From positions 22,889-86,888 of the forward strand of contig JAJEHQ010000011.1 of the NCBI GenBank assembly GCA_022823625.1: a stretch of 64,000 nucleotides of DNA. Direction: 5' to 3'. The DNA comes from Gammaproteobacteria bacterium. GTDB lineage: Bacteria > Pseudomonadota > Gammaproteobacteria > Arenicellales > JAJDZL01. This document shows positions 2,441 to 30,993 of this stretch, in pieces. Within the stretch, counting starts at the first letter, position 1. The number at the start of each line of letters is the position of its first letter. Position numbers and translations under genes: made by a program. Under the pieces are notes generated by a model. The model was given only the letters and a program-made list of their open reading frames with translations, was not told where the DNA came from and did not search any database.

Positions 2441-2443
2441 ACC

Positions 2444-4867: not shown

Positions 4868-4900
4868 ATTTTCACTAACCGAAAAAACCATCCAATCCGT

Positions 4901-7728: not shown

Positions 7729-8970
7729 TCAAGACCATAAAGTAGAGATTGGGGCGGCAATCAAACGATCACCGAATGGAAGTGTTAAATTGTGATCGTA
7801 TAAAACGAGCCCAAGCACAAATTTATCACCGCATGCGTGCGCTAGACTGCGTAGACCTGCAAAGTCCTTTTTGCTTACACTCGCTGAGGCTTTTACTTCT
7901 ATACCGACAACATAACCACGCATATTTTCGATCACAATATCGACTTCATGTTGATTGTGTTGGCGAAAGTGTGAGAAGAAATACCGCTCTTCGGACCAAC
8001 TGGAAAGTTTCAATAACTCGCCAAGTATAAAACTCTCAAGAATCGGCCCAAACCAGGTTCTGTCGTGTTCAAGAGGATGTTGAGAGACGCCTTTTAGCAC
8101 AGCCAGTAATCCCGAATCAAGAAAATGAAGTTTGGGAGATTTTGCAAGTCGTTTTAGTCTGTTTGTAGTCCATGGACGTAATGGATGAATCAGTAATAAT
8201 TGTTCAAAAACTCTGACATACTTTTTTGTTGTCACATGATTCATTCCAACCATCGATCCAATTTTTGAAAAGTTAGCAAGTTGTCCTGACAACTCGGCAA
8301 GTGTCTGGAGCAATTCGGGCATTGCGTTTAACTGATCAATTCGTGTGATATCGTAAACATCCCGTCGAATAATAGCGTCAATGTAGTCCAGATACCAGTC
8401 CCGTCGACGGTGTCCACTCGGACGTGTAAGAGCTTCAGGATATCCACCTGCGAGCACAACTTCAGCAAGCTTATTGTCAATCAATAAATTCTTTGTCGGC
8501 ATTGAGATTTTTCGGGCGAAAACATCTGACAGAAATGATGAACGTGAATCGTTCAGCTCTGACTGTGACAAGGGCAATAAACGAATCATCGAAATACGGC
8601 CAGCAAGCGAATCTGCAAGTCGTGGAGATTTAAGAAAATCTGCGGAGCCCGTAAGCAAAAAACGTCCGGGCCGAGAATCAGAATCTACAGAATATTTAAT
8701 TGCCAGAATTAATTCTGGAACCCGATGTACTTCGTCTATAACCGCACGATCAAGAATACGTATGAAACCAACTGGATCATCTGATGCCGTTTTGCGTATT
8801 GTTAAATCGTCAAGTGAATAATATGGCATATTATCATCTGCGATTTTTTGTGCAAGCGTCGTCTTTCCAGACTGTCGGGGACCAGAAATAAATACGACTC
8901 GAGTATCGCTTAGCGCTTCTCGAACGCGGTCTTCAACAAAACGCGGATACATTCCAGTAGTCAATGTCAT
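7729..8970 (-). CDS. AAA+ ATPase of the COG1373 / DUF4143 type (function unknown)
   Basis: Walker A GPRQSGKTT, Walker B-like AVIDEV, 413 aa with the C-terminal region typical of this family. The gene looks AT-richer than its neighbours by eye. Confidence 0.7.
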   Translation of the reverse strand: MTLTTGMYPRFVEDRVREALSDTRVVFISGPRQSGKTTLAQKIADDNMPYYSLDDLTIRKTASDDPVGFIRILDRAVIDEVHRVPELILAIKYSVDSDSRPGRFLLTGSADFLKSPRLADSLAGRISMIRLLPLSQSELNDSRSSFLSDVFARKISMPTKNLLIDNKLAEVVLAGGYPEALTRPSGHRRRDWYLDYIDAIIRRDVYDITRIDQLNAMPELLQTLAELSGQLANFSKIGSMVGMNHVTTKKYVRVFEQLLLIHPLRPWTTNRLKRLAKSPKLHFLDSGLLAVLKGVSQHPLEHDRTWFGPILESFILGELLKLSSWSEERYFFSHFRQHNQHEVDIVIENMRGYVVGIEVKASASVSKKDFAGLRSLAHACGDKFVLGLVLYDHNLTLPFGDRLIAAPISTLWS

Positions 8971-8977
8971 TCAAAAT

Positions 8978-9075
8978 TGAAAGTATGATACACTAAAATA
9001 TGAAAGTATAGTAATGTAAATATGAAATAATATATTTACATAAATGAAAGAATAATAGTTGTATTTTGAAAGTAT
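8978..9075. repeat. Three direct copies of TGAAAGTAT(R)(R)TA plus a 10-bp inverted repeat, directly upstream of the ATPase start codon
   Basis: TGAAAGTAT at 8978-8986, 9001-9009 and 9067-9075. ATGTAAATAT (9014-9023) and ATATTTACAT (9032-9041) are perfect reverse complements. Confidence 0.6.
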
Positions 9076-9698
9076 GGATAGTGACAAATGAAAAACTGCA
9101 AGCGCCATCTGAACTAGACAGCGATGTGTCTGAAATGGCGATGTCTGGGTAATGTTTTCGTCCGCAGAAGCCGGAAGCACTGGTCTATCCTGGCACGACC
9201 TTCACGGAGATTTTCCAAGAGACATGTACAATGCCAGTCTGTCGTGGAGTTTTCTGGCTGGACAGCAGCTTGTTGGACGGGTTGCTCGTGTGGGTATGAA
9301 GAGCCATCCTGTCATTCATATAATTGAAGCCGAGGACGTGCTAATTGAAAAACTGTTTGCAACCCGTCTGACCAAAGGCATGCGGGACATGGGACTTTCG
9401 GCTTTTTGCGGGCTCAGCCAGTCATAGAGGTTTCTTTCTGGTAGCATGAAGGAAAGGGATGATGGCGGAGCAACTGCACGCTGACTGCAGCGTTTGACAA
9501 AGCACATCCGGGATGCCATCGTGAGGATCCCCAGCTGCTTCAAATCCTCTGAAAACAGGTTGTCAATGAGGCGTTTGCGGTTCTCAGATACCGGTGCGAT
9601 CAGTTCCGGCCGCAGGTCGGAATTGCTTCTATAATTCGTACCTGGGGCCTCCTTTGACAAAGATCGACTCCGAAACTTGGTAAACAGAGAACCCAATA

Positions 9699-11135
9699 TT
9701 GCCAACTGAAATTTCCACTGGATTTAATCCTCATCGTCGTCGTTTTCTGCAGGCTTCAGCCACCGCAGCTGCAGTAGCGATTCTACCGCTTGAAAGTAGT
9801 TCCAGCCAATCATTTCCCTCAAATTTGGTTGCATCACCAGCAGATGCCGCTTTGGTTTTGGACCATGGGCCGGTCACTAAAGTCTGGGCATTCAACGAGA
9901 CTGTGCCAGGACCGCTACTTCGCTATAGACAGGGCGATACGTTGAGTCTCATGGTTGAAAACAAACTGGATCAACCGACGACTGTTCACTGGCATGGTCT
10001 GAGGGTGCCAATCGGTATGGATGGAGTGCCACATCTCAGCCAGAAACCAATCGATCCGGGTGACTCATTCCACTACCAATTTAAATTGGAGGATGCAGGT
10101 ACTTTTTGGTATCACCCGCATTTTGCCAGCTCCCAACAGGTTGGTATGGGACTGCACGGTGTTTTGATTGTTGATGAGTACGAACCTGTTGCGGTTGATC
10201 GTGATGTTGTCTGGGTGTTGGATGATTGGCGGTTAGATCAGGATGCCCAGATTCTGCCATTTGAGTCAAACATGCGAGATACTAGTCATAACGGACGACT
10301 TGGCAATGTGGTGACTGTTAATGGCACCATCGACGAAAAATTTGAGGTGCATCCCGGTGAACGTCTGCGTCTTCGCTTGGTGAATGTTGCAAATGCCAGA
10401 ACGTTTGCACTCAATTTTAACGATCTGGAACCATGGGTTATTGCAGTGGACGGTCATCCGATCAATCCACGCCGTCTCGATCAAAGCCTTGCTCCGTTAG
10501 GTTCCGGGCAGAGAATGGATCTAATTGTGGATATTGCCGGTAATCCAGGTGAGGTGAGCTCTGTAATCGATCAGGCTTACGCTCCCAACTTTGCCTATGA
10601 ATTGATGCAACTGGTTCGAACCGATAATTCCACATCAATTCAAAATTCCGTACCGAAGCGTCTGGCAGACAATCCCGTATCACCTCCGGACCTTGTGCAC
10701 GCAAAACGAATATCATTCCTCTTCGAAGGTGGCGCGATGGGTGGGATGACAGGTGCCACAGTAGAGGGAGAGTTTAAGACAATTCAGGAGTTGGTCGGAC
10801 TTGGAAAGGTCTGGTCATTGAACGGTATCGTGCAAAATGACGTTCACCTTGACCCGCCAATGTTCACCCTTGAACTTGGTCAGTCCTACATATTCGAGCT
10901 GGAAAACCGTACCGCCTGGGAGCATCCTTTCCATTTACACGGACATAGTTTCCAGGTAATAAGCCGTAATGGAGAACCATTGGCTGAACAGTTCACGCGG
11001 GATACAGTTCTGCTACAGCCGGAGGAAAGTGCGGAAATTGCTTTTTTGGCGGATAACCCGGGCAAGTGGATGTTTCACTGCCATATTCTGGAGCATCAAG
11101 ATGCTGGAATGACATCTGTCATTGAAATCATATAG
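9699..11135 (+). CDS. Multicopper oxidase, Tat-exported
   Basis: Twin-arginine signal HRRRFLQASATAAAVA. Copper-binding motifs HWHG, WYHPH, HPFHLHGH, HCHILEHQDAGM. TTG start as given in the track. Confidence 0.85.
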   Translation: MPTEISTGFNPHRRRFLQASATAAAVAILPLESSSSQSFPSNLVASPADAALVLDHGPVTKVWAFNETVPGPLLRYRQGDTLSLMVENKLDQPTTVHWHGLRVPIGMDGVPHLSQKPIDPGDSFHYQFKLEDAGTFWYHPHFASSQQVGMGLHGVLIVDEYEPVAVDRDVVWVLDDWRLDQDAQILPFESNMRDTSHNGRLGNVVTVNGTIDEKFEVHPGERLRLRLVNVANARTFALNFNDLEPWVIAVDGHPINPRRLDQSLAPLGSGQRMDLIVDIAGNPGEVSSVIDQAYAPNFAYELMQLVRTDNSTSIQNSVPKRLADNPVSPPDLVHAKRISFLFEGGAMGGMTGATVEGEFKTIQELVGLGKVWSLNGIVQNDVHLDPPMFTLELGQSYIFELENRTAWEHPFHLHGHSFQVISRNGEPLAEQFTRDTVLLQPEESAEIAFLADNPGKWMFHCHILEHQDAGMTSVIEII

Positions 11136-11185
11136 ACAGCACCAGACAAGCAATCGCTTTTGGTAACCGGGGTCTGGACTCAACC

Positions 11186-11224
11186 AAAACAAAAAAAAGG
11201 CCTGCTATCAATCGATAGCAGGCC
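11186..11224 (-). terminator. Rho-independent terminator of the phasin-like gene (possibly bidirectional)
   Basis: Perfect 11-bp stem GGCCTGCTATC-AATC-GATAGCAGGCC at 11199-11224. On the minus strand it is followed by T8GT4 (complement of 11186-11198). Confidence 0.75.
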
Positions 11225-11268
11225 CATTTCAAATAAGGAGGAGTAGTATGAAATGAAATCTTTACTGC

Positions 11269-11610
11269 TTAAGCAGCTTTAGCTTTGACAACCTTGGCTT
11301 CGGCGACCGGTGAAACTGTGGGTGAAAGCACTTTCTTCCACAGTCCAAAGTAAGCGTCATAGGCTTCATTGCCAAGTTCAATAGCAGACTGGGTTGAACT
11401 CTGAATCTGATCGACAACCGATGCGTTCCAGATTTTCTGGCTTGCGACATAGTCATCAAAGTTTTTAATATTGGCCCATTCGACAGCCTGATCAGACACT
11501 TGCTGTGCGAATTTCTGACCAGATACAACGCTCTGGTTGACTGATTTGGACAAAAGTCCTGAGTTAATGCTGACTGCTTCGTTTACGAAATTGACAATTT
11601 TGTTTTGCAT
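11269..11610 (-). CDS. Small alpha-helical protein, phasin-like (PHA granule-associated family), tentative
   Basis: 113 aa, no Cys/Trp-rich or TM features, Ala/Lys-rich tail AEAKVVKAKAA. General resemblance to phasin-family proteins. Own terminator; long AT-rich upstream region. Confidence 0.4.
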   Translation of the reverse strand: MQNKIVNFVNEAVSINSGLLSKSVNQSVVSGQKFAQQVSDQAVEWANIKNFDDYVASQKIWNASVVDQIQSSTQSAIELGNEAYDAYFGLWKKVLSPTVSPVAEAKVVKAKAA

Positions 11611-11843
11611 GGCTTATTTTCTCCAAGAAAAGTTTCTATGTTGCAGTGCAATATAATTCCTTTTGAATGGAAAGTCAAGTCTTTTTTGAATAAAATTTCA
11701 ATTTATTTGTAATTTTGTCACATCAGAATCATATTTTGAGAATAAATACATAATAACAAAGATATATAAGTCTAACAAATTTTAACAATTTCCCAAAATG
11801 GCCGTTTTTATCTCATCAGATGAGGTGATTATTTGGGTTGAAG

Positions 11844-11867
11844 TGTATTGTGCTTATGCACAATACA
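11844..11867. promoter_or_regulatory. Perfect 10-bp inverted repeat (candidate operator) in the 466-bp intergenic region
   Basis: TGTATTGTGC-TTAT-GCACAATACA at 11844-11867. A second small palindrome TTGCA-G-TGCAA lies at 11641-11651, 31 nt upstream of the phasin-like start. Confidence 0.35.
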
Positions 11868-12076
11868 TGCAAAATTTCAAAAAAACTGGCAGGAAAATCG
11901 GTTTTAAGTCGAAGTGGTGTGAGTTATCCAATTGATTCAGTGAATTTTCAAGTTTTATAATTACTGAAATAATTAATAAACTATTGATAATGATAAAAAC
12001 AGGCCTTGATTAGAGTGCTGAAATCCCCGCACTCATTTTCAGGAAACCAGCCTGGATACCAGGGAGGCTATATCAA

Positions 12077-12862
12077 GTGAAATTAGGCTTCGCGTATCGG
12101 ATTGCGCTGATGCTCGCACTGACGCTTGTCGTAGGCACAGCAATGACAACTGTGTTGAGTCTGCACAAATTCGAACGTATCCTCGCAGACCTGCTGACAT
12201 CCAGGTTTGAGTTTGTAGCCAATAATTTGCGACACGATATAGAAACCCAGATGGACTTGGGTTTGGTGCTTGCAAATTTAGAAAACATCAATGAAGAGAT
12301 GGAAAATCTGCTGCTTGATGATGAGCAGATACTATCTATTGAGATTTTTGATGAATCAGGCACCGTTATTTTCAGTACTGACCCCAGTTTCATCGGCGAC
12401 CTGGTAGCAGAAGACTGGCTATTCTTGTGGCAGATTAACCGTAATAAGTCTTCCTGGTCGCTTCTGGAAAAAGACGCTGGTGTCGTTGGCGCAGGCCTGA
12501 AGAACAACCTGAACCAGGATGTTGGTTCAATCGCCCTACGCTATTCGCGAGTATTTCTTGATCAAAGCGTCAATCAGCAGCTTGAGCGTTTGCTGTTTCT
12601 GGTTGGCGTGGTTGCCGTTGTGATGGCAGTGCTCAGCGTATTGGGTTGCGCCTTGGTGCTGAGACGCTATTTCAAGGATTGGGCAAATATGAGTGAAGCG
12701 CTTACCGATATCAACTCGCAAAACCGCGACAGTCCTAATCTAGCTGAAGCTAACTCCCGTCACCCGGAATTTGAAGAGTTTTCCACTTCGGTCTTTGATG
12801 CCTTTGACTCAATTGATTCGGCAACCAGTGAAATTAGAAAACTCGACGAGGAAGCAGTATGA
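12077..12862 (+). CDS. Membrane-anchored extracytoplasmic sensor-like protein (two TM segments, no output domain)
   Basis: GTG start. TM1 IALMLALTLVVGTAMTTVLSL, ~150-aa loop, TM2 LFLVGVVAVVMAVLSVLGCALVL. The loop contains ILSIEIFDESGTVIFSTDP, a motif shared with the next two sensor proteins. ATGA overlap with the next gene. Confidence 0.6.
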   Translation: MKLGFAYRIALMLALTLVVGTAMTTVLSLHKFERILADLLTSRFEFVANNLRHDIETQMDLGLVLANLENINEEMENLLLDDEQILSIEIFDESGTVIFSTDPSFIGDLVAEDWLFLWQINRNKSSWSLLEKDAGVVGAGLKNNLNQDVGSIALRYSRVFLDQSVNQQLERLLFLVGVVAVVMAVLSVLGCALVLRRYFKDWANMSEALTDINSQNRDSPNLAEANSRHPEFEEFSTSVFDAFDSIDSATSEIRKLDEEAV

Positions 12863-15045
12863 CGACTAAGGCTAAAGCTTCCAGCGTCGGGAAACGCGCA
12901 AGTCAATCTATAGTCGATGTATTTCGTCGCGAGCAGCGTAATCTGCTGATACGTCTGGTTCTGCTTGCAGTTTTAGTACTGGTTCTCGGTCAGTCAGCTG
13001 TATCGTGGTTCGCATTAGATGGCTTCGAGCAGGAACTTGACCCACAGCTGCATCAGAAAGCGACTGTCGTTGGCAATGCATTGGCCGAGCAGTTCACGTA
13101 TGCAACGGAAGAACTCGAAATTCCAGTTCAGGGTTTAGTCGGTGTGGAAGAGTACTTCGAGAGTGTACTGATGGCCAACGATGACATCAAATACCTTTCG
13201 CTTTTCGATGATTCGGGCAATTTACTCTTCGTCAGTGGAATTTCACGCGGCGAAATGAACGAGATCATGCAGGCTATTGAGAATGATGAAGTACAAGCCC
13301 ATAGCTATGGCAGTGCAGTCGGTGCTCATTTCGATAGTGTATTTGAGGTTTCTGGTGGTAATGGAGCTAACAGTGAATTGCACGTTGGTGTCAGTAGCGA
13401 GCGGGTACGCAGCCACCTCAGAGAAATATTTCTGGAAGTCATCACCATTGTCGTGATCTGCTGGCTGGTTACCTTTGAATTTCTGTTGTTCTTCATCGTC
13501 GCCCGTGTTGAAAAACCGATGGAGACGATTTGGCGAATTATGTCAGAAGGTGCGCGTGGAAAATTTTCTTCCTGGCTGCCAGTCAGATCCAGTGATGAAA
13601 TTGGTCAGCTAATCACAAGCTTCAACCGCACGCTTTATGATTTACGTCATCGATACAGTGATTTTGTGTTTGACGTAAAGGAAACACAGGATGCGCAGAT
13701 CGATAGCACAATTTCCGAAAAGATTGAAGAGATCCATCATCAGGTTAGAAGGCGCTTCCAATTTGAGAAGGGTAGGATAATGCAGATTGAAGCGGCGGAT
13801 CGTATCCGAGTTCCGCTGTTTCTTTTCATATTTTCTGAAGAACTCACTCGTTCTTTCCTGCCGCTGTACATTCAGAAATACGCACCAACAGATTTGATGC
13901 TTTCGACCGAACTCATGATTGGGTTGCCAATCACGCTGTTTATGGTTGCGGCGATGATTGCAACCCCGCTAGGTGGCGGTTTTGTAGACCGTGTGGGAGT
14001 TAAGAAAGTATTTTTAACCGGAACAGTCCTGGCACTCATTGGGTTTGTCGGAAATTTCTATGCACAGGGCTATGTCGATCTGGTTTTGTTTCGAGTTTTG
14101 ACAGGCATTGGCTACGGGCTGGTATTCATTGCTTCTGAGAGCTGGGTTTCACAAAACGCCCGGCGTCACAGCAGAGCATCAGCGACAGGAGTGTTTGTTG
14201 CGGCGGTATTCGCAGGCATCATCTGCGGCCCACCAATTGGAGGAATTCTTGCTGACCGGTTTGGATTCGAAGCAACTTTCTTATTTTCCGCATCACTGGC
14301 AGTTATTTCAGGTTTGTTCATATTTCAAGTCTTTGGTCAGTCGGAAAAAGCTGAGGAAGATTCAAATCAAAAGCGAACTCGTCCTGCTCTGATCTTGGGA
14401 TTTAAGGGTTGGCTAACTCTGCTGACGGATCTGCGGTTTGTATCGGTGCTCATCTTTGCAGCAATCCCGGGAAAAATGATGGTAGCCGGATTTGTTGCAT
14501 ATCTAGTACCGCTCTATTTGAATGATCTTGGCCACAATGAACCTTCGATTGGCCGGATACTAATGCTTTATGGAATTGCAACCCTGCTCTGCCTTACGAT
14601 CGGTGCACGCTTTGCAGACCGGACGGAAAAATATGGCACTATGGTAAGCCTCGGTACAATTGTTGCCGGATTGGGTTGTCTTGCGGCACTGCTTTCCAAC
14701 GTTTATATAGATCCAACAACTGCGGTTGTTCTCGCCATCGCATCACTTGGCGTTGGGCATGCTCTCACGCTGACATCGCAAAATTCAATTATTCAACAAG
14801 TTGCGGAAAGATATCGATACACCCTTGGCAGGGCATCAGTAATCGGCGCATATCGTCTGTGTGAACGGTTTGGCATGGTGGCGGGACCGATGATCGCGGT
14901 CGCTCTGATATCAGGATTTGGTTATGTGGGTGCGATTGTCGGATTCGGAGTGATACTGATTGGATTGATCAGCCTCTTTGTCATCACAAATCTGACCAGA
15001 GCCAATACCCCAATGGAAACAGAAGTTGGACTGGCAAATGAGTAA
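12859..15045 (+). CDS. Fusion protein: extracytoplasmic sensor module + HAMP domain + MFS transporter
   Basis: N-terminal TM/loop/TM. HAMP-like PMETIWRIMSEGARGKFSSWLPVRSSDEIGQLITSFNRTLYDL. C-terminal ~400 aa of multi-TM MFS body with motif-A-like GGGFVDRVGVKK. Confidence 0.7.
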   Translation: MTTKAKASSVGKRASQSIVDVFRREQRNLLIRLVLLAVLVLVLGQSAVSWFALDGFEQELDPQLHQKATVVGNALAEQFTYATEELEIPVQGLVGVEEYFESVLMANDDIKYLSLFDDSGNLLFVSGISRGEMNEIMQAIENDEVQAHSYGSAVGAHFDSVFEVSGGNGANSELHVGVSSERVRSHLREIFLEVITIVVICWLVTFEFLLFFIVARVEKPMETIWRIMSEGARGKFSSWLPVRSSDEIGQLITSFNRTLYDLRHRYSDFVFDVKETQDAQIDSTISEKIEEIHHQVRRRFQFEKGRIMQIEAADRIRVPLFLFIFSEELTRSFLPLYIQKYAPTDLMLSTELMIGLPITLFMVAAMIATPLGGGFVDRVGVKKVFLTGTVLALIGFVGNFYAQGYVDLVLFRVLTGIGYGLVFIASESWVSQNARRHSRASATGVFVAAVFAGIICGPPIGGILADRFGFEATFLFSASLAVISGLFIFQVFGQSEKAEEDSNQKRTRPALILGFKGWLTLLTDLRFVSVLIFAAIPGKMMVAGFVAYLVPLYLNDLGHNEPSIGRILMLYGIATLLCLTIGARFADRTEKYGTMVSLGTIVAGLGCLAALLSNVYIDPTTAVVLAIASLGVGHALTLTSQNSIIQQVAERYRYTLGRASVIGAYRLCERFGMVAGPMIAVALISGFGYVGAIVGFGVILIGLISLFVITNLTRANTPMETEVGLANE

Positions 15046-16087
15046 TCACAACAAGACTCAAAAAATATTATTAACAGTATTTCTGGTGCTGGCATTTGGC
15101 ATTACATCGTTGTCAAGCGCAATGGAACCTGAAGATGTGCCTGGCTTTACGCGTCCATTTTATGTTTTCGCGGTGCTTTGGCGTGGTGAAACTGAAGTGG
15201 AAGCGGGCTTTCGTGAATACTTTAGTCAGCGCGGTATTCCAGTCAGAATGACAGTGCGAAGTCTCGAATTGGATCGAGGTAACGCACCACCCATCATTGA
15301 AGAAATTCGACGGACTAAACCAGATTTGGTTTACACGTGGGGGACTGGAACCACGTTAAGTATTCTAGGCCCGCTGAATCCTGAAGAACCTGAGAAATTT
15401 GTTCAGGACATTCCAGGAATGTTTGTACTGGTTGCATATCCAATCAGTGCAAAAATTGTACAGAGTTTCGAAAACACCGGACGCCCGGTTACCGGGGTAT
15501 CGTTTCTGGCGTCAATTGAGTCTCAGCTGAAGGCAATTGTCGATTATGGCAAATTCCAGAAAATCGCTGTAATTTACGATGAGACTTCCAGCAATTCCAG
15601 AATCAATGTTGAATCACTGAAAGAAAGTGCCCCTGAACTTGGGCTTGAATTGGTGGTACTGCCTGTTCCCCTTGGAGAAAACGGTAAACCTGATCCAGAA
15701 AAATTAACTGAATTGATTCAAACAGCAAAAAATGAAGGTGCACAACTACTGTATATGGGGCCGGATTCGTTTATTACGCGCCATGGTGATGCATTCACAT
15801 CAGAGGCCATCGCAGTTGGACTGCCGACATTTGCATCAACGCAGGCACCACTCAATGGGTCGCGGGCCATGTTTGGATTGGTATCGGATTACCACACGCT
15901 CGGCAAACTGGCTGCGACACAGGCGGAAAAAATACTCGTCGATAAACAAAATCCGCAAGATCTGCCTGTGGTCAGTCTGTCTCGGTTTAAGTTGTGGATC
16001 AACATAGACGTTGCCCGTGAAGTCATGATGTACCCGCCAATGGACATGATCGCGATCGCAGATTTCAAAACATCCCCACAGAACTAA
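15038..16087 (+). CDS. Periplasmic substrate-binding protein (COG2984-like ABC-type SBP fold) with signal peptide
   Basis: Signal peptide KILLTVFLVLAFGITSLSSAME; ~340 aa alpha/beta SBP-like sequence. No cognate ABC permease or ATPase is adjacent. The ATG at 15038 overlaps the upstream stop; the track start is 15026. Confidence 0.55.
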   Translation: MSNHNKTQKILLTVFLVLAFGITSLSSAMEPEDVPGFTRPFYVFAVLWRGETEVEAGFREYFSQRGIPVRMTVRSLELDRGNAPPIIEEIRRTKPDLVYTWGTGTTLSILGPLNPEEPEKFVQDIPGMFVLVAYPISAKIVQSFENTGRPVTGVSFLASIESQLKAIVDYGKFQKIAVIYDETSSNSRINVESLKESAPELGLELVVLPVPLGENGKPDPEKLTELIQTAKNEGAQLLYMGPDSFITRHGDAFTSEAIAVGLPTFASTQAPLNGSRAMFGLVSDYHTLGKLAATQAEKILVDKQNPQDLPVVSLSRFKLWINIDVAREVMMYPPMDMIAIADFKTSPQN

Positions 16088-16119
16088 CAACCGGGTGAAC
16101 TGAATGTTCAAAGTAAGTC

Positions 16120-18696
16120 ATGCAGATACGAACCCGGATTAGTCTACTCAGCGCAATTGTCACAATTGTTGTGGCCGCAGCGATCACTTTCGCAGCGCTG
16201 CAACGCGAAGTTTTGATCGACAAACGCTATTCGAATCAGATTATTGCGGACCAGCTGATTTTGTGGAACAAGATCAAGGACGGGCTGATCGATGAGATGG
16301 AAGATCTTGTTTGGTTGCTTCAGGAAAATCGTGAACTTCTGGATGCACTGGAATCAGAAAACCTGGTCGAAATCCAAAGAGTTGGCAACAAGATAAAAGA
16401 AGAGTTTGAGTCTGAACCGGCGCTTGATCGGGTCGATCTCATTATGCCAGACGGTTCGTTGGCGTATTCCTCCCAAACTGCTGTATTTCCAAGTTCTATT
16501 ATTTCGAATGCTGTAATTGAAGATGTGATCGAAAGTGAAATTCCAGTCAGGGGAGTGGGTAATGATAAGCAGCGAAACACAGCACTGGTTTACGGCACGC
16601 CAATTTATGGCGATGATGGCAGCGTTTTGGCTCTTGGTGTTCTTGGTCTTGATATCTCTAGCGCACTGCTGGAATTTGAGGAAGTCAATTTTGCTTCAGT
16701 TGTTATTGTTAATCGACGTGGTCGCATACTTGCAGCAACCGGAGAAAATTTGTGGGATCGCTACAGCGAATTGATCGATATTTCTGAAGCAAACAATCTT
16801 CAGACCATTGAAGATGAAGGCCGTTATTTTTCAGTTATTGTTTTACCTCAAACTGCTGAGTTAGGCGGGTTGGTCGGCCGGTTGCTCAACATCAGGGAAG
16901 TGACGGAACTGGTTACCCGTCAACAGCAAATCTCTCAAAGAACGCTTCTGGTAGCAGTCGTTTTTCTTGCGCTCGCCGTGTTTGGAGTCTATTTGTATAT
17001 GGCACACGCATTTGCTCCATTGGTCGAGGGAGTGAGTGTTCTCAGTGCACTAAGTAAAGGTGATTTGCGAGCTAGAATTGAACGTAACACAGGCAATGAC
17101 GAAGTTGGCATGATCGCCAACGCAGTGAATGTCTTTCACAACAATTTACTAACGATTCAACGCATCCGTCGTTCCCGCGAGCGACAGTATGGACGGCAGC
17201 AGCGATTTATTTTTCGAGAAATGCAAGGACTTGCTGACACACTCGACGGTGATGAACGCGACGCATTACTTACGGAATTACAGGAACTTGGCGATCTGGT
17301 TGAGCTGAAGGCGGGGCTTAGGTCGAGACAGACAGATGTAGCAAACACTGAAGATCCTGCACAAGGCGAGCAGGATTCCGACAGTCTTGCGATGCTGGCA
17401 CAGGCATTTCAAGGGATGTCGAACCGTGTTCAGAACCAGCATCAAAGATTGCGAGACGCATTGGCAACCAAAGAGGCTCTGATTGCGCTTCGGAACGAAC
17501 TGAATATTGCGACTCGCGTTCAACAGTCATTGCTGCCTCCAAATGTAGAGTTGTCCAGTGCTTACAAAATATGGGGTGGTATGTGGCCCGCAAAAGAAGT
17601 GGGCGGTGATTTTTATGACTTCTTCCCACTCGATGACCATCGTCTTGCAATTGCAATTGCGGATGTATCCGGCAAAGGTGTTCCAGCTGCACTGTTTACG
17701 GTGATGGCGCGTACGATGCTGCACGCCTCTGCTGCGTTTTTGAATTCGCCTGGCAAGGCGTTGTCAGTCATTAATAATTTTTTGGAAAGCAATAATGATG
17801 AAGGCTTGTTTGTAACGGTGTTTTACGGCATTCTGGATATTCAGACTGGTAAATTCAGATATGCAAATGGCGGTCACAATCCACCAATTATTCTGGACAG
17901 CAAAGGGGCGCGTTCTCTGGAAACAACCTCAGGAATGGTGCTTGCGATGTTTCGGAACATCTTATACAAGGATACCGAAATTGAATTGGAACCAGACGCT
18001 CGCCTTATCATGCTAACCGATGGAATTCCAGAGGCATTCAATGCAGAGGAGGAGGCATTTGGCGACGACCGTGTACTCAAGACAATAGAAGCTCTGCCCG
18101 AAAACAGCACACCAGCGGAAGATGTCGAATTTATCGTCAACACCGTCAATAAATTTGTTGGTGATGCGCCGCAATTTGACGATATTGCGTGTGTTGTTTT
18201 TCGGTTCAAGGAGTTTTTTGAGGCGGTTAGGAGGAAAAGCGAAGAGGGCGGTGATTCTTCAGACCAAGACGAATCTGCTAAATTGGAATTGATGATCGAC
18301 ACCGATCTTGCAGAACTGGGCAGAATCGCGGTTGAAATTGAAGAACATGGTAAGGCACACAATTGGCCGAACGAGTGGTTGTTCAATGTCAATTTGTCTT
18401 TAGATGAATTGGTCACCAACGTCATCAATTATGGATACGCGGAAGGTAAGACTACAAAAGAGATTCAACTTACTCTGAAAGTTGTCAATGGGAGTTTGTG
18501 GGTTGTATTGGTCGATGATGGTATTGAGTTCAACCCGTTCAGCGATGCACCGGCACCGGATACCGATGCGCCGTTAGAAGAACGTCAAATCGGAGGGCTT
18601 GGGATTTTCTTTGTGAAATCTTTAGTCAACGAGACGGACTATACAAGAAAAGATGGGAAAAATTACACAACCCTGATTTTGCACCCATCGACATAA
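16120..18696 (+). CDS. Sensor-HAMP-PP2C (SpoIIE/RsbU-type) phosphatase fused to an RsbW/SpoIIAB-type serine kinase (GHKL ATPase) domain
   Basis: N-terminal TM, ~260-aa extracytoplasmic region, second TM. HAMP (GDLRARIERNTGNDEVGMIANAVNVF). PP2C motifs GGDFYDF, ADVSGKGVPAAL, LTDGIPEA, DDIACVV. C-terminal kinase-like ELVTNVINYG, DDGIEFNP, GGLGIFFVKS. Confidence 0.75.
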   Translation: MQIRTRISLLSAIVTIVVAAAITFAALQREVLIDKRYSNQIIADQLILWNKIKDGLIDEMEDLVWLLQENRELLDALESENLVEIQRVGNKIKEEFESEPALDRVDLIMPDGSLAYSSQTAVFPSSIISNAVIEDVIESEIPVRGVGNDKQRNTALVYGTPIYGDDGSVLALGVLGLDISSALLEFEEVNFASVVIVNRRGRILAATGENLWDRYSELIDISEANNLQTIEDEGRYFSVIVLPQTAELGGLVGRLLNIREVTELVTRQQQISQRTLLVAVVFLALAVFGVYLYMAHAFAPLVEGVSVLSALSKGDLRARIERNTGNDEVGMIANAVNVFHNNLLTIQRIRRSRERQYGRQQRFIFREMQGLADTLDGDERDALLTELQELGDLVELKAGLRSRQTDVANTEDPAQGEQDSDSLAMLAQAFQGMSNRVQNQHQRLRDALATKEALIALRNELNIATRVQQSLLPPNVELSSAYKIWGGMWPAKEVGGDFYDFFPLDDHRLAIAIADVSGKGVPAALFTVMARTMLHASAAFLNSPGKALSVINNFLESNNDEGLFVTVFYGILDIQTGKFRYANGGHNPPIILDSKGARSLETTSGMVLAMFRNILYKDTEIELEPDARLIMLTDGIPEAFNAEEEAFGDDRVLKTIEALPENSTPAEDVEFIVNTVNKFVGDAPQFDDIACVVFRFKEFFEAVRRKSEEGGDSSDQDESAKLELMIDTDLAELGRIAVEIEEHGKAHNWPNEWLFNVNLSLDELVTNVINYGYAEGKTTKEIQLTLKVVNGSLWVVLVDDGIEFNPFSDAPAPDTDAPLEERQIGGLGIFFVKSLVNETDYTRKDGKNYTTLILHPST

Positions 18697-18732
18697 GACG
18701 CTTATCAACTGCCATCGTGCTACGGTTCTGAT

Positions 18733-19830
18733 ATGGATCAATCGTCTGCTATTGAGGCCGATTCAGCACTACGCGAGTGGTATGCATCAAAGGGTTCTCC
18801 GAGTGTCGAAACTTTCGATTGGAGCCACTACGATGCAATGGTCAGTTCTGTGCGATGCAGTATTCCTGACTGGCCATTTCGATTCAGTTTCACTTATATC
18901 CATTCCGAACAACTTCAGGATAAGGAGTTCGGATTGGGAAAGCCTTATGAAATTCCGCTAAATGCTACTGATCCAGGCGGTGACGGACTTCCAATAATTG
19001 CTATTGGTGGACTGATCAATGTTGCCCAGCGTTTTGATTTTATGTCGCTCGATCTGATGCCGCACTTTCGCCTGATTAGCCTCGACCTTGCGGGACGCGG
19101 TCGAAGTGGCTGGATGGCTGAGCAATCAGACTACACTCTGGACGCTTACGTTGAACAATTGCGTCAGTTGATGGATTTCCTGAAATTTGATTGCTGCATA
19201 CTGCTGGGTTCATCACTGGGCGGGTCAATTGCGTTGCGTTTTGCGGCAAACAATCCGGATCGTGTCAGAAAAATCATATTGAACGATAGCGGTCCGTTTA
19301 TACCACTGGAGCGACGCGCACGGCGTGCATCTGCAGTTGGCCGACATTATGTCTTCCGATCCCCAGCTGAGTTACTGCGTCGTACTGGCGCTGCAACGCG
19401 TCCAGTGGGTTATGCGCCAGATGCAGTTCTCCTGCACAACTTTCACCACAAAACGCGCTGGTCAGACGACGAGGGCGGTCGAATTTATAGACATGATCTT
19501 CGGGCAACACTTGCCTATCGAAATATTGCGGTACAAGACTTGAATCTGTGGGATGAGTGGAATCATTTGACCTGCCCAGTGCTGCTACTTCATGGTACAG
19601 AGAGTGACGCCACTTCGACCAATACGATTAACCGTATGCGTGAGCATCCTGATCTGTCCGTCATACATGTACATGGTGCAGGTCACACTCCTTCTCTTGG
19701 CGACTTTGGCCTGACTCAGTTGATCGCGGAATGGCTGAAATTTGACCGTCCGTACAGTGCGGATATAGAATTTCGTACGGCTTACAATCCAGTCCGTCTG
19801 TTCTACCCCGATGCTCGACGAAGAAGCTAA
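18733..19830 (+). CDS. Alpha/beta-fold hydrolase
   Basis: Nucleophile elbow GSSLGGSIA, LHGTESD and HGAGHTP in the order expected for the Ser-Asp-His triad; 365 aa with a ~90-aa N-terminal extension. Confidence 0.7.
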   Translation: MDQSSAIEADSALREWYASKGSPSVETFDWSHYDAMVSSVRCSIPDWPFRFSFTYIHSEQLQDKEFGLGKPYEIPLNATDPGGDGLPIIAIGGLINVAQRFDFMSLDLMPHFRLISLDLAGRGRSGWMAEQSDYTLDAYVEQLRQLMDFLKFDCCILLGSSLGGSIALRFAANNPDRVRKIILNDSGPFIPLERRARRASAVGRHYVFRSPAELLRRTGAATRPVGYAPDAVLLHNFHHKTRWSDDEGGRIYRHDLRATLAYRNIAVQDLNLWDEWNHLTCPVLLLHGTESDATSTNTINRMREHPDLSVIHVHGAGHTPSLGDFGLTQLIAEWLKFDRPYSADIEFRTAYNPVRLFYPDARRRS

Positions 19831-20401
19831 ACCAGGTCGAGGCTTCATATTCATGCGCCACGGCGAGACCGCGGCAAACTACGACAAGATTTGTTGTGGT
19901 GGTGATCGTGAGATGCCGATGATTGATTCCGGACGTCAACAGGTCAGAACTGCGGCTGAGATATTGCGGAATCATCGGCTAATTCCACAAGTCATTATTA
20001 CAGGCGATCTCCAGCGAACGGTTGAGAGCGCAAAAATTATCCAGAACGAACTGAATCCTCTTGCTCAGATACTCATTGATCAGGATCTAAATGAACGCCA
20101 TCTTGGAGACTGGAATGGGCAAACTCAAGCAGTGATCAACCCGATAATGATCGCAGGAGAAACGCCTAATGGTGGCGAGAGCAGGGCTGAATTTCGATCA
20201 CGAATGAACCGTTCCCTCGATAGACAGTTGAAATACTTTTCCAACTGGCCTTTGCTCATTGGCAGTCGCGGCAATGCTCGCATTTTGCTGGAAGCGGTTC
20301 AGGACCCAGACGCCCCTTTTTTTCCTAATGGGCAGATTCTTAAAGTTAAAATCGCCGAAATCGGCGATTTTTCTGTGCAGAATATTGAAAGGCTGGAGTG
20401 A
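19811..20401 (+). CDS. Histidine phosphatase family protein (phosphoglycerate-mutase-like)
   Basis: FIFMRHGETAAN (RHG catalytic motif) near the N-terminus; 196 aa; 20-nt overlap with the hydrolase gene. Confidence 0.7.
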   Translation: MLDEEAKPGRGFIFMRHGETAANYDKICCGGDREMPMIDSGRQQVRTAAEILRNHRLIPQVIITGDLQRTVESAKIIQNELNPLAQILIDQDLNERHLGDWNGQTQAVINPIMIAGETPNGGESRAEFRSRMNRSLDRQLKYFSNWPLLIGSRGNARILLEAVQDPDAPFFPNGQILKVKIAEIGDFSVQNIERLE

Positions 20402-20536
20402 ATCTAAATTCTGTCAGATGTGTATTCCTTCTCAGAATTAGAGTCAAAATTTACTGTCGGTCTTCTGAATGCGATTCAGGCTACGGTACCTTCCGTGGTC
20501 GTTTGATAGTCTAGCAGGCAGGTCTTCTGCACAAAA

Positions 20537-20869
20537 TTAAATCGCATTCAGAGCATCTTGACGCGAGTCTTTTATATCGATGATGTTGCCAAAACCGCTT
20601 ATTTCAAAAACCTCTTTGACTCCAGGCGCAATTGAGCAGATGGAAAAGTGAACACTTTTACTGGACAGTGTTTTTGCCAGCAAAAGAATTACTCGTAATC
20701 CAGCACTGCTTATGTAGCTTAACTGACTCAATTCCAAAATGACCGGCTGATTGGCATCACCGACTGATTTATTGATTGATGCTTGAAAATCAAGTGCGTT
20801 CTGGCCGTCAATACGGCCACTCGGTATAAGAATAATTGCACCGTTCGCATGTTCAGTCGCAATTTCCAT
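20537..20869 (-). CDS. STAS-domain protein (anti-sigma-factor antagonist, RsbV/SpoIIAA type)
   Basis: 110 aa. LSQLSYISSAGLRVILL carries the conserved phosphorylatable Ser context (DSSG-like). Sits 89 nt downstream of amt on the same strand and converges on the + strand sensory operon. Confidence 0.8.
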   Translation of the reverse strand: MEIATEHANGAIILIPSGRIDGQNALDFQASINKSVGDANQPVILELSQLSYISSAGLRVILLLAKTLSSKSVHFSICSIAPGVKEVFEISGFGNIIDIKDSRQDALNAI

Positions 20870-20958: not shown

Positions 20959-22335
20959 TCAATCCGGATCATTATCCGGCATAATCATAAATTCTGGATA
21001 AGCCTCAATTCCAAGTTCAGCAACATCCTGCCCAAGTTCTTCGACATTCGGTGTCACTCGTGCTTTCATCGTCATGTCGAGTATTTTCCATACTATTAAC
21101 GATGTGATAAATACGAATGCTCCAATTGCAAGAATACCGATTAATTGTACTGAAAATTTTGCACCGCCTGCAATACAGACTGCAAGTGTACCCCAGATTC
21201 CGGCGAACAAATGTGCTGGGACTGCGCCGACAACGTCATCGATCTTCAAATTCTCTAGTAATTTTACACCTGCTGTGGAAACCAAACCACCAATTCCACC
21301 GATCACAATTGCCCATTGATGAGAAACAATATCCGGTCCAGCAGTAATTGCGACCAACCCCGCGATCGCCCCATTCAGACAGGCAAGTAAATCGACCCGG
21401 CCCAAAATTGGCCTGGACACCATCATTGCAACCATGACACCTGCCGCTGCAGCCAGGTTGGTGTTGGCGAGAATGATACTCATTGCAACAACGTTGAGCG
21501 CCGAGTCCATGGCTAACTGAGACCCGCCATTAAATCCAAACCAGCCGAGCCAGAGAATGAAAACACCTAAAGTAACGACTGGAATATTGGATGGCGGTGT
21601 ATTTTTCACTGTGCCATCTTTTCTAAACTTCCGTGCCCGGGCACCGACTATGATTGCGCCGGCCAAAGCCGCCCAACCGCCTGTCGAGTGAACGATCGTT
21701 GATCCCGCAAAATCCTGAAAGCCCATTTCTGAAAGCCAGCCGCCACCCCAGGTCCAGGACCCGATAATCGGATAAATGATTGCTGTAAGTATCAGGGTAA
21801 ATGCGAAGAATGTCCACAACTTAACTCGTTCGGCCAATGTGCCCGAAACAATTGATGCGGTTGTAGCAACAAAGACCATCTGGAAAAACCAATCCGACAT
21901 GGTCGAGTATCCAGATTCAATGACCGGACCCAAGGCCGCACTGTCGCCGCCCAAAAGGGCGATTTCTTCGGGTGTGGAGCTATAGAAAAGGGTGAATGTC
22001 CCGAAAAAACTGCCAACGTCAATGTACATCAGGTTGTAGCCTAATGTGTAATAGGCCAGCCCTGCGATGGCATAAAGCCCGATGTTTTTAAGACAGATGA
22101 CCGAGGCATTCTTGGTTCGCACCGAACCGGATTCAAGCATGGTAAATCCGGCACACATCCACATAACCAGTGCGCCCCAAAGAATGAAGGAAAAGGAATT
22201 CAGAACAAAGCCAGTTTCACCATCTGGTGATGCAACTGCTATGGGTGCAACAGCCGTAAGTGCAATTGCGGTTATCCCTTTCAACCCAATTTTCAAAATC
22301 CGTATAAGAATTGCATTTCTCGCGATTGGTGCCAT
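20959..22335 (-). CDS. amtB: Ammonium transporter (Amt family)
   Basis: FQDFAGSTIVHSTGGWAALAGAIIVGAR signature; 11-TM-like. The ATG at 22335 is preceded by GGAGA at 7-nt spacing and gives a signal-peptide-like N-terminus. The track ORF extends to 22362. Confidence 0.9.
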   Translation of the reverse strand: MAPIARNAILIRILKIGLKGITAIALTAVAPIAVASPDGETGFVLNSFSFILWGALVMWMCAGFTMLESGSVRTKNASVICLKNIGLYAIAGLAYYTLGYNLMYIDVGSFFGTFTLFYSSTPEEIALLGGDSAALGPVIESGYSTMSDWFFQMVFVATTASIVSGTLAERVKLWTFFAFTLILTAIIYPIIGSWTWGGGWLSEMGFQDFAGSTIVHSTGGWAALAGAIIVGARARKFRKDGTVKNTPPSNIPVVTLGVFILWLGWFGFNGGSQLAMDSALNVVAMSIILANTNLAAAAGVMVAMMVSRPILGRVDLLACLNGAIAGLVAITAGPDIVSHQWAIVIGGIGGLVSTAGVKLLENLKIDDVVGAVPAHLFAGIWGTLAVCIAGGAKFSVQLIGILAIGAFVFITSLIVWKILDMTMKARVTPNVEELGQDVAELGIEAYPEFMIMPDNDPD

Positions 22336-22525
22336 TTGCTTGTCTCCACAAGTTGTTTTCAAACAACGCTATGGATTATAACCATATTAATAAAATGGCT
22401 AGTCAATCGGTTGCGAATTGCCTCTGTTCGTCGATCGCCTGAAAGTAACATCAATTAATAGTAATTTGGTGAATCGTCTCTGATCGACGACACGTTTTAC
22501 AAACGACAAAAAAAAGAAAAATGAC

Positions 22526-24121
22526 GTGAAATACAGCCTCCGTTTACTTACAGGGGACATTTTCGGCGGTATTACCGCTGCAATCATTGCCCTACCTTTA
22601 TCGATAGCATTTGGTGTCGCGTCAGGTGTCGGCGCGCAGGCAGGATTGTATGCCGCAATCGCTATAGCAGTCTGTGCCGCAATATTTGGCGGTACCCGTG
22701 CGATGGTGTCAGGTCCCACTGCACCGATGATTGTTGCCATGGCGGTAATTGTCACCCATTCTGCAGATTCTCTGGCAGAAGCTTTTACCATCGTGATGCT
22801 TGCAGGATTACTGCAAATCGGCTTTGGCATATTTCGCTTAGGCCGATTCATTGCTTACACACCTTACTCCGTGATCTCTGGATTCATGTCGGGCATCGGC
22901 GTCATCATTATTGCACTTCAGGTATTTCCGATTCTTGGGATCAGTCTTGACAGTCATTTAGACATTCACATCATTTCGCAAATACCCGACATTCTAGCCA
23001 GTATCAATTTGCATGCAGTAAGTGTGGCTGCGATCACGCTTTTGACTATTCTGTTTTGGCCACTCAACCTGCATCGGTTCATTCCAGCTACTTTAGGCGC
23101 AATGATTGTTGGTTCTTTAATTGGCTATTTCATTTTTCAGCAGGCGCCTGTCGTTGGTACTATCCCCTCAGGTCTCCCTGAGCTTCAAATCCCTGTTCTT
23201 GGACTTGAGTTTTTAGTTAAAGTCATTCAGCCTGCGTTGGTTCTCGCAATTATCGGGGTTATCGAAACTTTGCTCGTCGCACTGATTTCAGATGCCATGA
23301 CCCGCTCGCGGCACAAACCCAATCGAGAAATTGTTGCCCAAGGAATTTCAAACATACTCTCCGGTCTGGTTGGTGGTTTACCTGGATCTGGTTCGCCTGT
23401 TCCCACAATAGTAAATATCAAGGCTGGCGGCAGAACTCGAGTTTCGGCTATTTTGTGTGGATTGATTCTTTTCGCGTTTCTTTTCGATCTTGGCAGAATG
23501 GTAGAACAGATTCCGCTGGCAGTTCTGGCGGCACTGCTCGTCAGAATCGGCTGGAATGTGATCGACTGGCGGTTTATCTCCAGAATTCACAAGATTCAGA
23601 AAACACACGTTACGGTTATGGTGTTAACTGCATTCCTTACCGTGTTTGTGGACCTGATCACCGCAGTCGCAATTGGGCTGATTGCTTCGGGCATGATCAA
23701 CGCAATGAATGCAGAGAGTATCGAGTTAGACAGTGTTTTGTCTGTACCGCTGATTGATCCTGACTCAGATGATGTGTTTTTATCAAGAACTGGGCTCGTT
23801 AGAATGACCGGTCGATTTACATTTGCTTCTGCGAGCAGGCTGCAGCACGTAATAGCTGCCGACATCAGGGATCACGAAGTGGTGATTTTTGATTTTTCCC
23901 AAACCGATGACTTAGACGACAGTGCAGTCATTGTTATCGGTGCATTGATTAGCAGTTCCTACGAGCAGGGCAAGCCGTGTGTCATATTGGGTCTGGATAA
24001 GAAAATTGGCCGGCTGTTGCATTCACTCCATGCCCTAGAGGAAGTTGACGAAGCCAACTATGTCGATACACTCGATGAAGCGAAAAAGCTGGCAAACTCC
24101 TTACTCCCACCTTTGTCATGA
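22526..24121 (+). CDS. SulP-family anion transporter with C-terminal STAS domain
   Basis: N-terminal LTGDIFGGITAAIIALPLSIAFGVASG, multi-TM core, cytoplasmic C-terminal ~130-aa STAS-like region. GTG start. Confidence 0.85.
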   Translation: MKYSLRLLTGDIFGGITAAIIALPLSIAFGVASGVGAQAGLYAAIAIAVCAAIFGGTRAMVSGPTAPMIVAMAVIVTHSADSLAEAFTIVMLAGLLQIGFGIFRLGRFIAYTPYSVISGFMSGIGVIIIALQVFPILGISLDSHLDIHIISQIPDILASINLHAVSVAAITLLTILFWPLNLHRFIPATLGAMIVGSLIGYFIFQQAPVVGTIPSGLPELQIPVLGLEFLVKVIQPALVLAIIGVIETLLVALISDAMTRSRHKPNREIVAQGISNILSGLVGGLPGSGSPVPTIVNIKAGGRTRVSAILCGLILFAFLFDLGRMVEQIPLAVLAALLVRIGWNVIDWRFISRIHKIQKTHVTVMVLTAFLTVFVDLITAVAIGLIASGMINAMNAESIELDSVLSVPLIDPDSDDVFLSRTGLVRMTGRFTFASASRLQHVIAADIRDHEVVIFDFSQTDDLDDSAVIVIGALISSSYEQGKPCVILGLDKKIGRLLHSLHALEEVDEANYVDTLDEAKKLANSLLPPLS

Positions 24122-30822: not shown

Positions 30823-30993
30823 GGCTGATTCAAGCGCTCTTAAATTTTGCAGTGGCTGTTTAGTCGCTTTGTTGAATTTTCTGAAAAAGATTGAGACTTA
30901 AAAATTTAGACTAAAGGACCAGGCGTAAAAATATAAAATTTTTTGCCAAATTTTCTAAGTCTGGAATCTAGAATTACTTTTTTGCGACGAATT

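Follow-up and report, generated by a model that had tools for sequence, protein, structure and literature searches.

We analysed a 64,000-nucleotide stretch of DNA from a gammaproteobacterium (NCBI GenBank assembly GCA_022823625.1, contig JAJEHQ010000011.1, positions 22,889 to 86,888), hereafter called the window. It encodes an 858-aa protein with a PP2C phosphatase domain and an RsbW-type kinase domain behind a transmembrane sensor, and a separate single-domain STAS protein. Our analysis indicated that the 858-aa protein is likely to be a membrane-bound bifunctional partner-switch sensor acting on this STAS protein. The domain architecture, the intact catalytic motifs, the acceptor serine and the linkage of the three activities across phyla can be read directly from the sequences; the role of the STAS protein as substrate of kinase and phosphatase, as well as the output of the switch, we infer. 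A preliminary description of this DNA had proposed that an extracytoplasmic signal could set the kinase/phosphatase balance on the STAS protein directly, through a single fused polypeptide. Its observation of the protein, the catalytic competence and the STAS partnership stood up to our analysis, but the special standing of the fused design and the direct input found no support in the form first given.

In the proposed mechanism, a dCache-like domain of the 858-aa protein would read a putative periplasmic ligand, probably aided by a PF04392 solute-binding protein and two membrane proteins with sensor-like features. From there the signal would cross the second transmembrane segment (TM2) and run along HAMP and a dimeric coiled-coil linker as far as the 'switch' helices of the PP2C domain, where it would raise or lower phosphatase activity. 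Ser55 of the STAS protein would receive a phosphate from the C-terminal kinase domain, the PP2C domain would remove it again, and the ligand would set the fraction of unphosphorylated STAS protein. This path is modelled, by analogy, on the published linker mechanism of PPM phosphatases (PMC12143880) and on HsbR and CrsR (PMC6482189). Gene linkage makes an ammonium transporter (Amt) and a HAMP-MFS transporter the leading output candidates, as targets or co-sensors.

Domains and catalytic motifs of the sensor and its STAS partner

The protein, its parts and the STAS protein are located in the window as follows (TM1, first transmembrane segment; ORF, open reading frame; AF2, AlphaFold2; pLDDT, predicted local distance difference test).

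16120–18696, plus strand: sensor phosphatase/kinase, 858 aa (ORF call, Pfam, alignment, AF2 model, structural matches)
16144–16200, plus strand: TM1 (hydrophobic segment, residues 9–27)
16201–16944, plus strand: periplasmic dCache-like domain between TM1 and TM2, residues 28–275 (Pfam dCache_1, AF2)
16945–17001, plus strand: TM2 (hydrophobic segment, residues 276–294)
17035–17151, plus strand: HAMP domain, residues 306–344, followed by a conserved helical linker to about residue 470 (Pfam 2.4e-8)
17563–18207, plus strand: PP2C/PPM (SpoIIE-family) phosphatase domain, residues 482–696 (Pfam 1.2e-49)
18208–18300, plus strand: acidic, disordered PP2C-kinase junction, residues 697–727 (AF2 pLDDT, alignment with the split locus L087)
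18301–18678, plus strand: RsbW/SpoIIAB-type GHKL serine kinase domain (HATPase_c_2), residues 728–853 (Pfam PF13581 3.1e-19)
20537–20869, minus strand: single-domain STAS protein, 110 aa, the predicted substrate (PF01740 1.2e-19; TIGR00377 1.7e-22)

About 248 aa of the 858-aa protein lie outside the membrane, flanked by the two hydrophobic segments. Pfam and these segments agree with the order described previously, that is, a transmembrane segment, an external region of ~260 aa, a second transmembrane segment, HAMP, linker, PP2C and GHKL. The Pfam SpoIIE/PP2C match (PF07228) spanned residues 505–696, and no Response_reg, PAS or STAS domain was found in the protein upon Pfam search. A public record in its 90% cluster is named 'SpoIIE family protein phosphatase [Gammaproteobacteria bacterium]'.

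Every motif quoted in the preliminary description was found at its place. The PP2C motifs are GGDFYDF (residues 495–501), DVSGKG (515–520) and FDDIACVV (686–693), and those of the kinase are DELVTNVINYG (762–772), DDGIEFNP (799–806) and GGLGIFFV (825–832). We aligned the window protein with 13 fused and four unfused relatives (47–95% identity). D497, D500, D515, G518, G520, D634, G635, D687 and D688 were invariant, the motifs GGDF.D, DVSGKG, GGHNPP, TDG..E and FDDI.C were unchanged, and two linker motifs, RRSRERQ..RQ.RFI and DSLA..AFQ.MS.RVQ, were conserved in the same 18 sequences. The kinase domain matched Bacillus subtilis RsbW (PDB 6M36) with an E-value of 2.9e-4. Its N box (E763/N767), G1 box (D799-x-G801) and G2 box (G825-G-L-G828) matched RsbW 6M36 and the stand-alone kinases of split orthologues; the same residues matched SpoIIAB. 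No catalytic residue was thus missing from either domain, and judged by these alignments the catalytic motifs of both the phosphatase and the kinase are intact.

The PP2C domain found RssB, SiaA, Rv1364c and SpoIIE in the PDB by sequence, and the same four together with RsbX by structure. Our AF2 model, a monomer built from 18 sequences, had a mean pLDDT of 76 and a predicted template modelling score (pTM) of 0.39. The PP2C (482–696) and GHKL (722–854) folds were confident. The periplasmic part consisted of a long stalk helix and two alpha/beta modules with a pLDDT of 80–90, helices were predicted at 299–403 and 421–470 in the HAMP/linker region, and the junction at 703–718 was disordered (pLDDT <50). 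The top structural match of the model in the PDB was 3KE6 (RsbU and RsbW of Rv1364c), with 380 aligned columns over both domains.

The STAS protein matched PF01740 and TIGR00377, the latter an anti-sigma-factor antagonist model, and contains, as previously noted, the sequence YISSAGL, at residues 52–58. The E-values of these family matches are much too low to be due to chance. Ser55, whose codon is at 20705–20707 (minus strand), aligned with SpoIIAA Ser58 in 1TH8, 1AUZ and 1TID, the last of which has Ala at that position. STAS orthologues were sampled from 16 loci; YISSAGLR was unchanged in 15 of these, the other (L013) having the conservative YVSSAGLR, so the acceptor position was Ser in all of them. 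Ser55 is therefore the predicted phospho-acceptor of the STAS protein.

Fused and split forms of the family

A protein search of 5.8 billion sequences returned 827 relatives of the 858-aa protein at E ≤1e-10. Among the best 120 of these 827, 46 carried the kinase domain (47 with the window protein), and the remaining ones were about 700–720 aa long and ended after PP2C. Three related loci have a separate kinase gene. In L087 the PP2C stop codon, a 25-nt spacer and the kinase ATG follow one another at the position of the junction in the window protein; in L170 the kinase gene lies ~30 nt downstream of the PP2C gene, and in L003 it is found just upstream of the gene cluster. Residues ~720–858 of the window protein aligned end-to-end with the stand-alone kinases of the split loci, and residues 697–727 represent what was once the gap between the two genes, together with the start of the kinase. 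That the split orthologues keep the kinase gene near the PP2C gene is Rosetta-stone evidence for the bifunctional-sensor reading.

Fused (_F) and split (_u) forms were interspersed in the family tree, which was constructed by neighbour-joining on residues 1–696, without bootstrap. P0043_F, for example, was placed by P0106_u, and P0034_F and P0035_F by P0052_u and P0054_u. This indicates that the stop codon has been repeatedly lost or gained, and the fused and split states look functionally equivalent. The idea that the fused design is special was not upheld, with the two forms interspersed in this way and the kinase gene separate in L087 and L170.

A scan of genome contigs in a species-level collection with the family alignment gave mostly distant relatives, with 29–45% identity. 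At 59 of 80 PP2C loci in this collection the kinase domain came directly after PP2C. Taxa with such fusions included Clostridia, Treponema, Bacteroidales, Dehalococcoidia and other groups, and a STAS gene was found at most 6 kb from 46 of the 59. The PP2C-kinase fusion is a known, recurrent and widespread design and is not distinctive; the 858-aa protein is a new input type, a transmembrane Cache-HAMP sensor, on a known PP2C-RsbW chassis.

Several known systems are close to this arrangement. Rv1364c of Mycobacterium tuberculosis (PAS-PP2C-RsbW-STAS) is like the window protein in that PP2C is directly followed by an RsbW-type kinase in one chain. However, it is cytoplasmic, has a PAS input and carries its STAS domain fused, whereas the window protein is in the membrane, has a Cache-HAMP input and has a separate STAS gene. 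In HsbR of Pseudomonas aeruginosa and CrsR of Shewanella oneidensis, a fused PP2C-kinase sets the phosphorylation of the STAS partner, HsbA or CrsA, and the domain order is REC-PP2C-kinase/anti-sigma (PMC6482189). They share with the window protein this succession of PP2C and kinase/anti-sigma domain, a separate STAS protein and a Gram-negative host, but they have a receiver domain fed by a phosphorelay, in place of which the window protein has its transmembrane Cache-HAMP part and no REC domain. Their outputs RpoS, FlgM and HsbD have no counterpart in the window cluster. The 858-aa protein thus works like HsbR and CrsR but stands outside their family.

SypE of Vibrio fischeri, earlier cited as the fused precedent, does combine kinase and PP2C in one protein with a STAS target, SypA. 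It differs in its order (kinase-REC-PP2C), its cytoplasmic location and its receiver input, and is a remoter analogue than Rv1364c, HsbR and CrsR. RsbU of Chlamydia trachomatis (with RsbW and RsbV1/2) and SiaA of P. aeruginosa are membrane PP2Cs like the window protein, and SiaA also has a HAMP domain. The split orthologues in L087, L170 and L003 share with these two the layout of a sensor-PP2C and a separate kinase; unlike in the window, the kinase of RsbU and SiaA is always a separate protein. Chlamydia RsbU has a periplasmic sensor domain (PMC13463777).

Conserved gene cluster and ammonium transporter

The preliminary description was silent on the two genes between the sensor gene and the STAS gene and on the three co-oriented genes upstream of the sensor gene. 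These genes, and the amt gene beside the STAS gene, are the following.

12077–12862, plus strand: two-TM membrane protein, 261 aa, first gene of the operon (TM at residues 5–23 and 172–190)
12859–15045, plus strand: sensor-like (TM, external domain, TM)-HAMP-MFS fusion with a 12-TM MFS part, 728 aa (MFS_1 6.5e-43)
15026–16087, plus strand: periplasmic solute-binding protein, PF04392 (ABC_sub_bind) (Pfam 9.6e-19; signal-peptide-like N-terminus)
18733–19830, plus strand: alpha/beta hydrolase, 365 aa, with a GSSLGG nucleophile elbow (Abhydrolase_1 9.8e-16)
19811–20401, plus strand: His_Phos_1 protein (histidine-phosphatase superfamily), 196 aa, with an RHGE motif, last plus-strand gene of the operon (Pfam 3.6e-23)
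20959–22362, minus strand: ammonium transporter, 'marine subtype', directly upstream of the STAS gene (Pfam 6.8e-97; TIGR03644)

The plus-strand genes between 12077 and 20401 are joined by overlaps of 4–20 nt or gaps of 32–36 nt, and no convincing internal terminator was found among them. We compared eight close loci, namely the window, L084, L085, L001, L086, L087, L003 and L170, whose sensors are 47–95% identical. All eight contained the small membrane protein, HAMP-MFS, PF04392, PP2C with kinase, hydrolase and His_Phos_1 genes and the amt-STAS pair, so that a cluster of nine genes has been kept from 95% down to ~47% sensor identity. In each of them amt was directly followed by the STAS gene on the same strand, although the orientation of the pair relative to the operon flips in L003.

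A core of small membrane protein, HAMP-MFS, binding protein and sensor-PP2C was kept at 29–35% sensor identity in Spirochaetia, Rhodobacterales, Azospirillum and other Alphaproteobacteria. In four such distant loci, L004–L007, STAS was present and no amt was found within 10 kb. L004 and L006 also gave a match to the kinase domain, and the gene order in L004 is PP2C-STAS-kinase. The phosphatase-kinase-STAS linkage therefore holds in the eight close loci and in distant loci with different gene orders. This bears on the suggestion that the STAS gene might co-vary with amt rather than with the operon. STAS stands by PP2C or kinase in the amt-less L004–L007, against the suggestion, but amt versus operon is a false choice, because the amt-STAS pair belongs to the conserved cluster.

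The 261-aa protein gave no Pfam or NCBIfam match. Its gene was present in the eight close loci and in L004–L007, and it was weakly similar to the N-terminal sensor region of the HAMP-MFS protein encoded by the next gene (E 7e-5). It looks like a stand-alone copy of the sensor module of that protein and is always first in the operon. The HAMP match in the 728-aa fusion was weak (Pfam 0.004), and its homologues have precomputed HAMP matches and a JGI name, 'MFS family permease/HAMP domain-containing protein'; the protein is co-distributed with the PP2C family in the same genomes, under generic names only. A sensor-HAMP module joined to a full MFS transporter is an unusual fusion. It accompanies the cluster in different phyla, and the joining of HAMP to a transporter hints at transport gated by a ligand or at a transceptor. 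The PF04392 protein had 6HNI, 3LKV and 3LFT as PDB relatives, and its gene immediately preceded the PP2C gene in all the close loci, L004 and L005, and was elsewhere in L006 and L007. In a similarity search among the three periplasmic domains, that of the 858-aa sensor matched neither of the other two. The gene for the 858-aa protein is always accompanied by those for the PF04392 protein and the two sensor-like membrane proteins. The sensor input is probably multi-component, and 'direct' input was not supported in the form first proposed. The hydrolase, which had generic PDB and NCBIfam relatives only, and the His_Phos_1 gene were kept in all close loci and in L005.

Several observations weigh against the proposal that the 858-aa protein is a bifunctional sensor acting on this STAS protein. 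The STAS gene follows amt, after a gap of 89 nt, on the strand opposite to the operon and is not co-transcribed with the sensor gene. A promoter-like site at 20930–20902 is perhaps its own; our promoter/terminator scan yielded no more sites than expected from shuffled sequence and is used descriptively. The dCache_1 match of the sensor (residues 45–228, E 7.7e-9, 35.9 bits) is under the Pfam gathering score of 45, and PF02743 matches are precomputed on many of its homologues. The pLDDT of the HAMP/linker region is 50–60 in the AF2 monomer with its low pTM, and because of this low confidence the path of signal transmission is not captured by the model. The hydrolase and His_Phos_1 proteins are conserved yet have no role in the proposed mechanism. 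Finally, neither the 64-kb window nor related loci yielded a sigma factor or any other classical target. A second partner-switch gene was likewise not found in the window.

We regard it as very unlikely that the nearby STAS protein is not the substrate, with the kinase and phosphatase acting on another target (e.g. the HAMP/linker of the MFS protein) or with one of the two domains serving as a non-catalytic binding module. The place of the STAS gene in a different transcription unit on the other strand would fit this, and SiaA, whose PP2C is among the best PDB matches, belongs to a type of PP2C-kinase pair (SiaA/SiaB) that acts on non-STAS substrates, in the SiaABC threonine phosphorylation pathway (bioRxiv 10.1101/674879). 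But the STAS linkage holds across phyla and gene orders, the acceptor Ser is invariant, and all catalytic motifs are conserved in the phosphatase as well as in the kinase. The 858-aa protein also scored just 72.7 bits with the NCBIfam SiaA model (NF038263), whose cutoff is 700.

A classical anti-sigma function is possible but doubtful. Here the membrane-tethered C-terminal domain would sequester a distally encoded sigma factor (e.g. RpoS), which unphosphorylated STAS protein would free, and the cluster transporters would be inputs only; this would extend the bifunctional-sensor reading rather than exclude it. CrsR and HsbR, which share the PP2C-kinase/anti-sigma di-domain, bind RpoS although rpoS lies outside their operon (PMC6482189), and the C-terminal domain of the window protein is RsbW-like in sequence and structure. 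On the other hand, no sigma-factor gene was found in the eight close loci, the window among them, the cluster has transporters and a binding protein as its conserved partners rather than transcription factors, and membrane tethering is unusual for an RsbW-type anti-sigma factor.

The conserved partner that adjoins the STAS gene, the Amt, met the NCBIfam model TIGR03644 ('probable ammonium transporter, marine subtype') with 518.6 bits against a cutoff of 514. Its true start is probably at 22335, giving 458 aa, because the 100%-identical P0142 and P0143 are 458 aa long; the annotated TTG would be nine codons too early. The clade is tight, the top 120 clusters being at least 72% identical, and none of these 120 contained an Amt fused to STAS or kinase. 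The window gave no PII (glnK) match anywhere in its 64 kb. GlnK-AmtB resembles the window arrangement in that a small regulatory protein is encoded beside amt, but the neighbour in the window is STAS and not PII.

We then sampled 80 Amt-centred metagenome loci, in which a GlnK probe sequence gave 48 matches at 52–69% identity. Among the eight closest Amt relatives (62–72% identity), glnK was found in none, and STAS plus kinase, with or without PP2C, in three. Among the 72 remoter relatives (≤61% identity), glnK was directly upstream of amt in 48, and partner-switch genes were found in none. Fisher's exact test on these contrasts gave p ~7e-4 and ~4e-4, values that are optimistic since the loci are phylogenetically non-independent.

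The arrangement of the partner-switch genes varied between the loci that carry this Amt type. A 4-nt overlap joins the kinase gene to the start of amt in L088, where two STAS genes come next. L090 combines a HAMP-PP2C gene with two kinase/STAS pairs. In L091, glnA-amt converges on a kinase-STAS-REC/PP2C-Peripla_BP_6-HAMP histidine kinase operon (8429–16825). In L075 (Gemmatimonadota), kinase and STAS come after amt, with a REC-PP2C gene in divergent orientation. There, beside a 69%-identical Amt, a 290-aa ORF at 8432–9304 (minus strand) matched both HATPase_c_2 and STAS; this ORF may represent a fusion of kinase and STAS, or the ORF call may have joined two genes in high-GC DNA. A module of REC-PP2C, kinase, binding-protein and histidine-kinase genes (405–5389) lies 8 kb from the Amt in L168, with no STAS gene called. 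The operon of L091 and L168 is a two-component-fed counterpart of the window system that recurs near the same Amt type. Six same-clade Amt loci, L089, L092–L095 and L169, had neither glnK nor STAS nearby.

The closest solved Amts were the ammonium receptors Sd-Amt1 and Ks-Amt5, not AmtB. An N1/N2 ligand signature of ammonium-receptor Amts has been published (PMC11152129). The window Amt keeps the N1 ligands (E, N, S/T, S) and the exit-blocking Asn-269 and shares both with Sd-Amt1 and Ks-Amt5, but at N2 Asp-48 is replaced by Leu, Tyr-119 is Phe, and the fused transducer module is missing. The same N1/N2 pattern was found in 48 glnK-linked and 31 unlinked Amt relatives. The signature is thus common to glnK-linked relatives and not specific to the STAS-linked clade; it does not mark the window Amt as a dedicated sensor, and we set it aside as specific support for that idea.

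These loci bear on a further reading, in which the STAS protein or the kinase domain would bind the glnK-less Amt and/or the HAMP-MFS transporter and gate transport as an analogue of GlnK; alternatively, the Amt would be an ammonium receptor feeding the kinase/phosphatase balance. We consider such a transporter-coupled switch unlikely. The constant order of amt and STAS, kept even where the pair is flipped, argues for it, as do the glnK-less closest relatives, the overlap of kinase and amt genes in L088, the REC- or HAMP-input switches tied to the same Amt type in L075, L090 and L091 (with glnA adjoining in L091), and the receptor nature of the nearest solved Amts. It is opposed by the distant loci, which keep PP2C, kinase, STAS, MFS and binding-protein genes with no amt within 10 kb, by the six same-clade Amts that have no nearby STAS, and by the lack of Amt-STAS or Amt-kinase fusions in the top 120 clusters. 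The receptor-type N1 signature, equally present in glnK-linked relatives, the absent N2 Asp and the non-independence of the loci speak against it as well. It is likewise improbable, in our judgement, that in the glnK-less 'marine subtype' clade STAS, the RsbW-like kinase and PP2C together replace GlnK as post-translational controller or transducer of the Amt, the switch being wired in this cluster also to the HAMP-MFS and binding proteins and coupled to transport instead of a sigma factor.

Neighbouring genes and biological meaning

A SulP/SLC26 transporter with a C-terminal STAS domain is encoded at 22526–24121 (plus strand), divergent from amt. Its best NCBIfam similarity was to the bicarbonate transporter BicA, well under the cutoff, and its gene is also near the cluster in L085 and L087.

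Upstream of the cluster, a 113-aa ORF at 11269–11610 (minus strand) had no family match and is followed by a strong terminator-like hairpin at 11225–11198. A counterpart of 112–115 aa was found at the same place in L001, L084, L085 and L087. The ORF looks phasin-like by composition alone, and the cluster hydrolase gave weak matches to intracellular PHA depolymerases (NF050089, PDB 8YNV); a storage-polymer link of the two is possible. An AAA_14/DUF4143 ATPase gene at 7729–8970 (minus strand), together with a 129-aa ORF at 9316–9705, lies between an AMP-binding gene and a multicopper oxidase gene. L084, although 95% identical and otherwise syntenic, lacks the ATPase gene, which has probably been inserted recently. 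Two PIN-domain proteins, at 36232–36672 (minus strand) and 54050–54562 (plus strand), are likely toxins of toxin-antitoxin pairs.

Two tandem genes for DAO-FAO_M-GCV_T proteins of ~807 aa, FolD and formate-tetrahydrofolate ligase are encoded at 14–4867 (plus strand), 30943–31875 (plus strand) and 33691–35370 (minus strand). The DAO-FAO_M-GCV_T proteins are dimethylglycine/sarcosine-dehydrogenase-like, and an MTTB trimethylamine methyltransferase gene is near the cluster in L086. The locus is surrounded by methylated-amine catabolism, an ammonium-releasing process.

In the searchable literature, neither the conserved cluster with its transporters nor the association with a glnK-less Amt seems to have been described. 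We found no paper that joins partner switching, STAS and an ammonium transporter, and a looser search gave incidental co-mentions only.

The fused protein alone adds little; its value lies in its context, a partner switch tied to two transporters and a binding protein. The host is an uncultured marine gammaproteobacterium, and its Amt belongs to a widespread marine clade without the otherwise near-universal glnK. If it is true that the STAS switch controls or reads the Amt, this would explain how glnK-less Amts are regulated and would provide a tractable non-sigma output of partner switching in abundant uncultured marine bacteria. It would then be an undescribed way to regulate or read ammonium transport, and a new output class for STAS switches.

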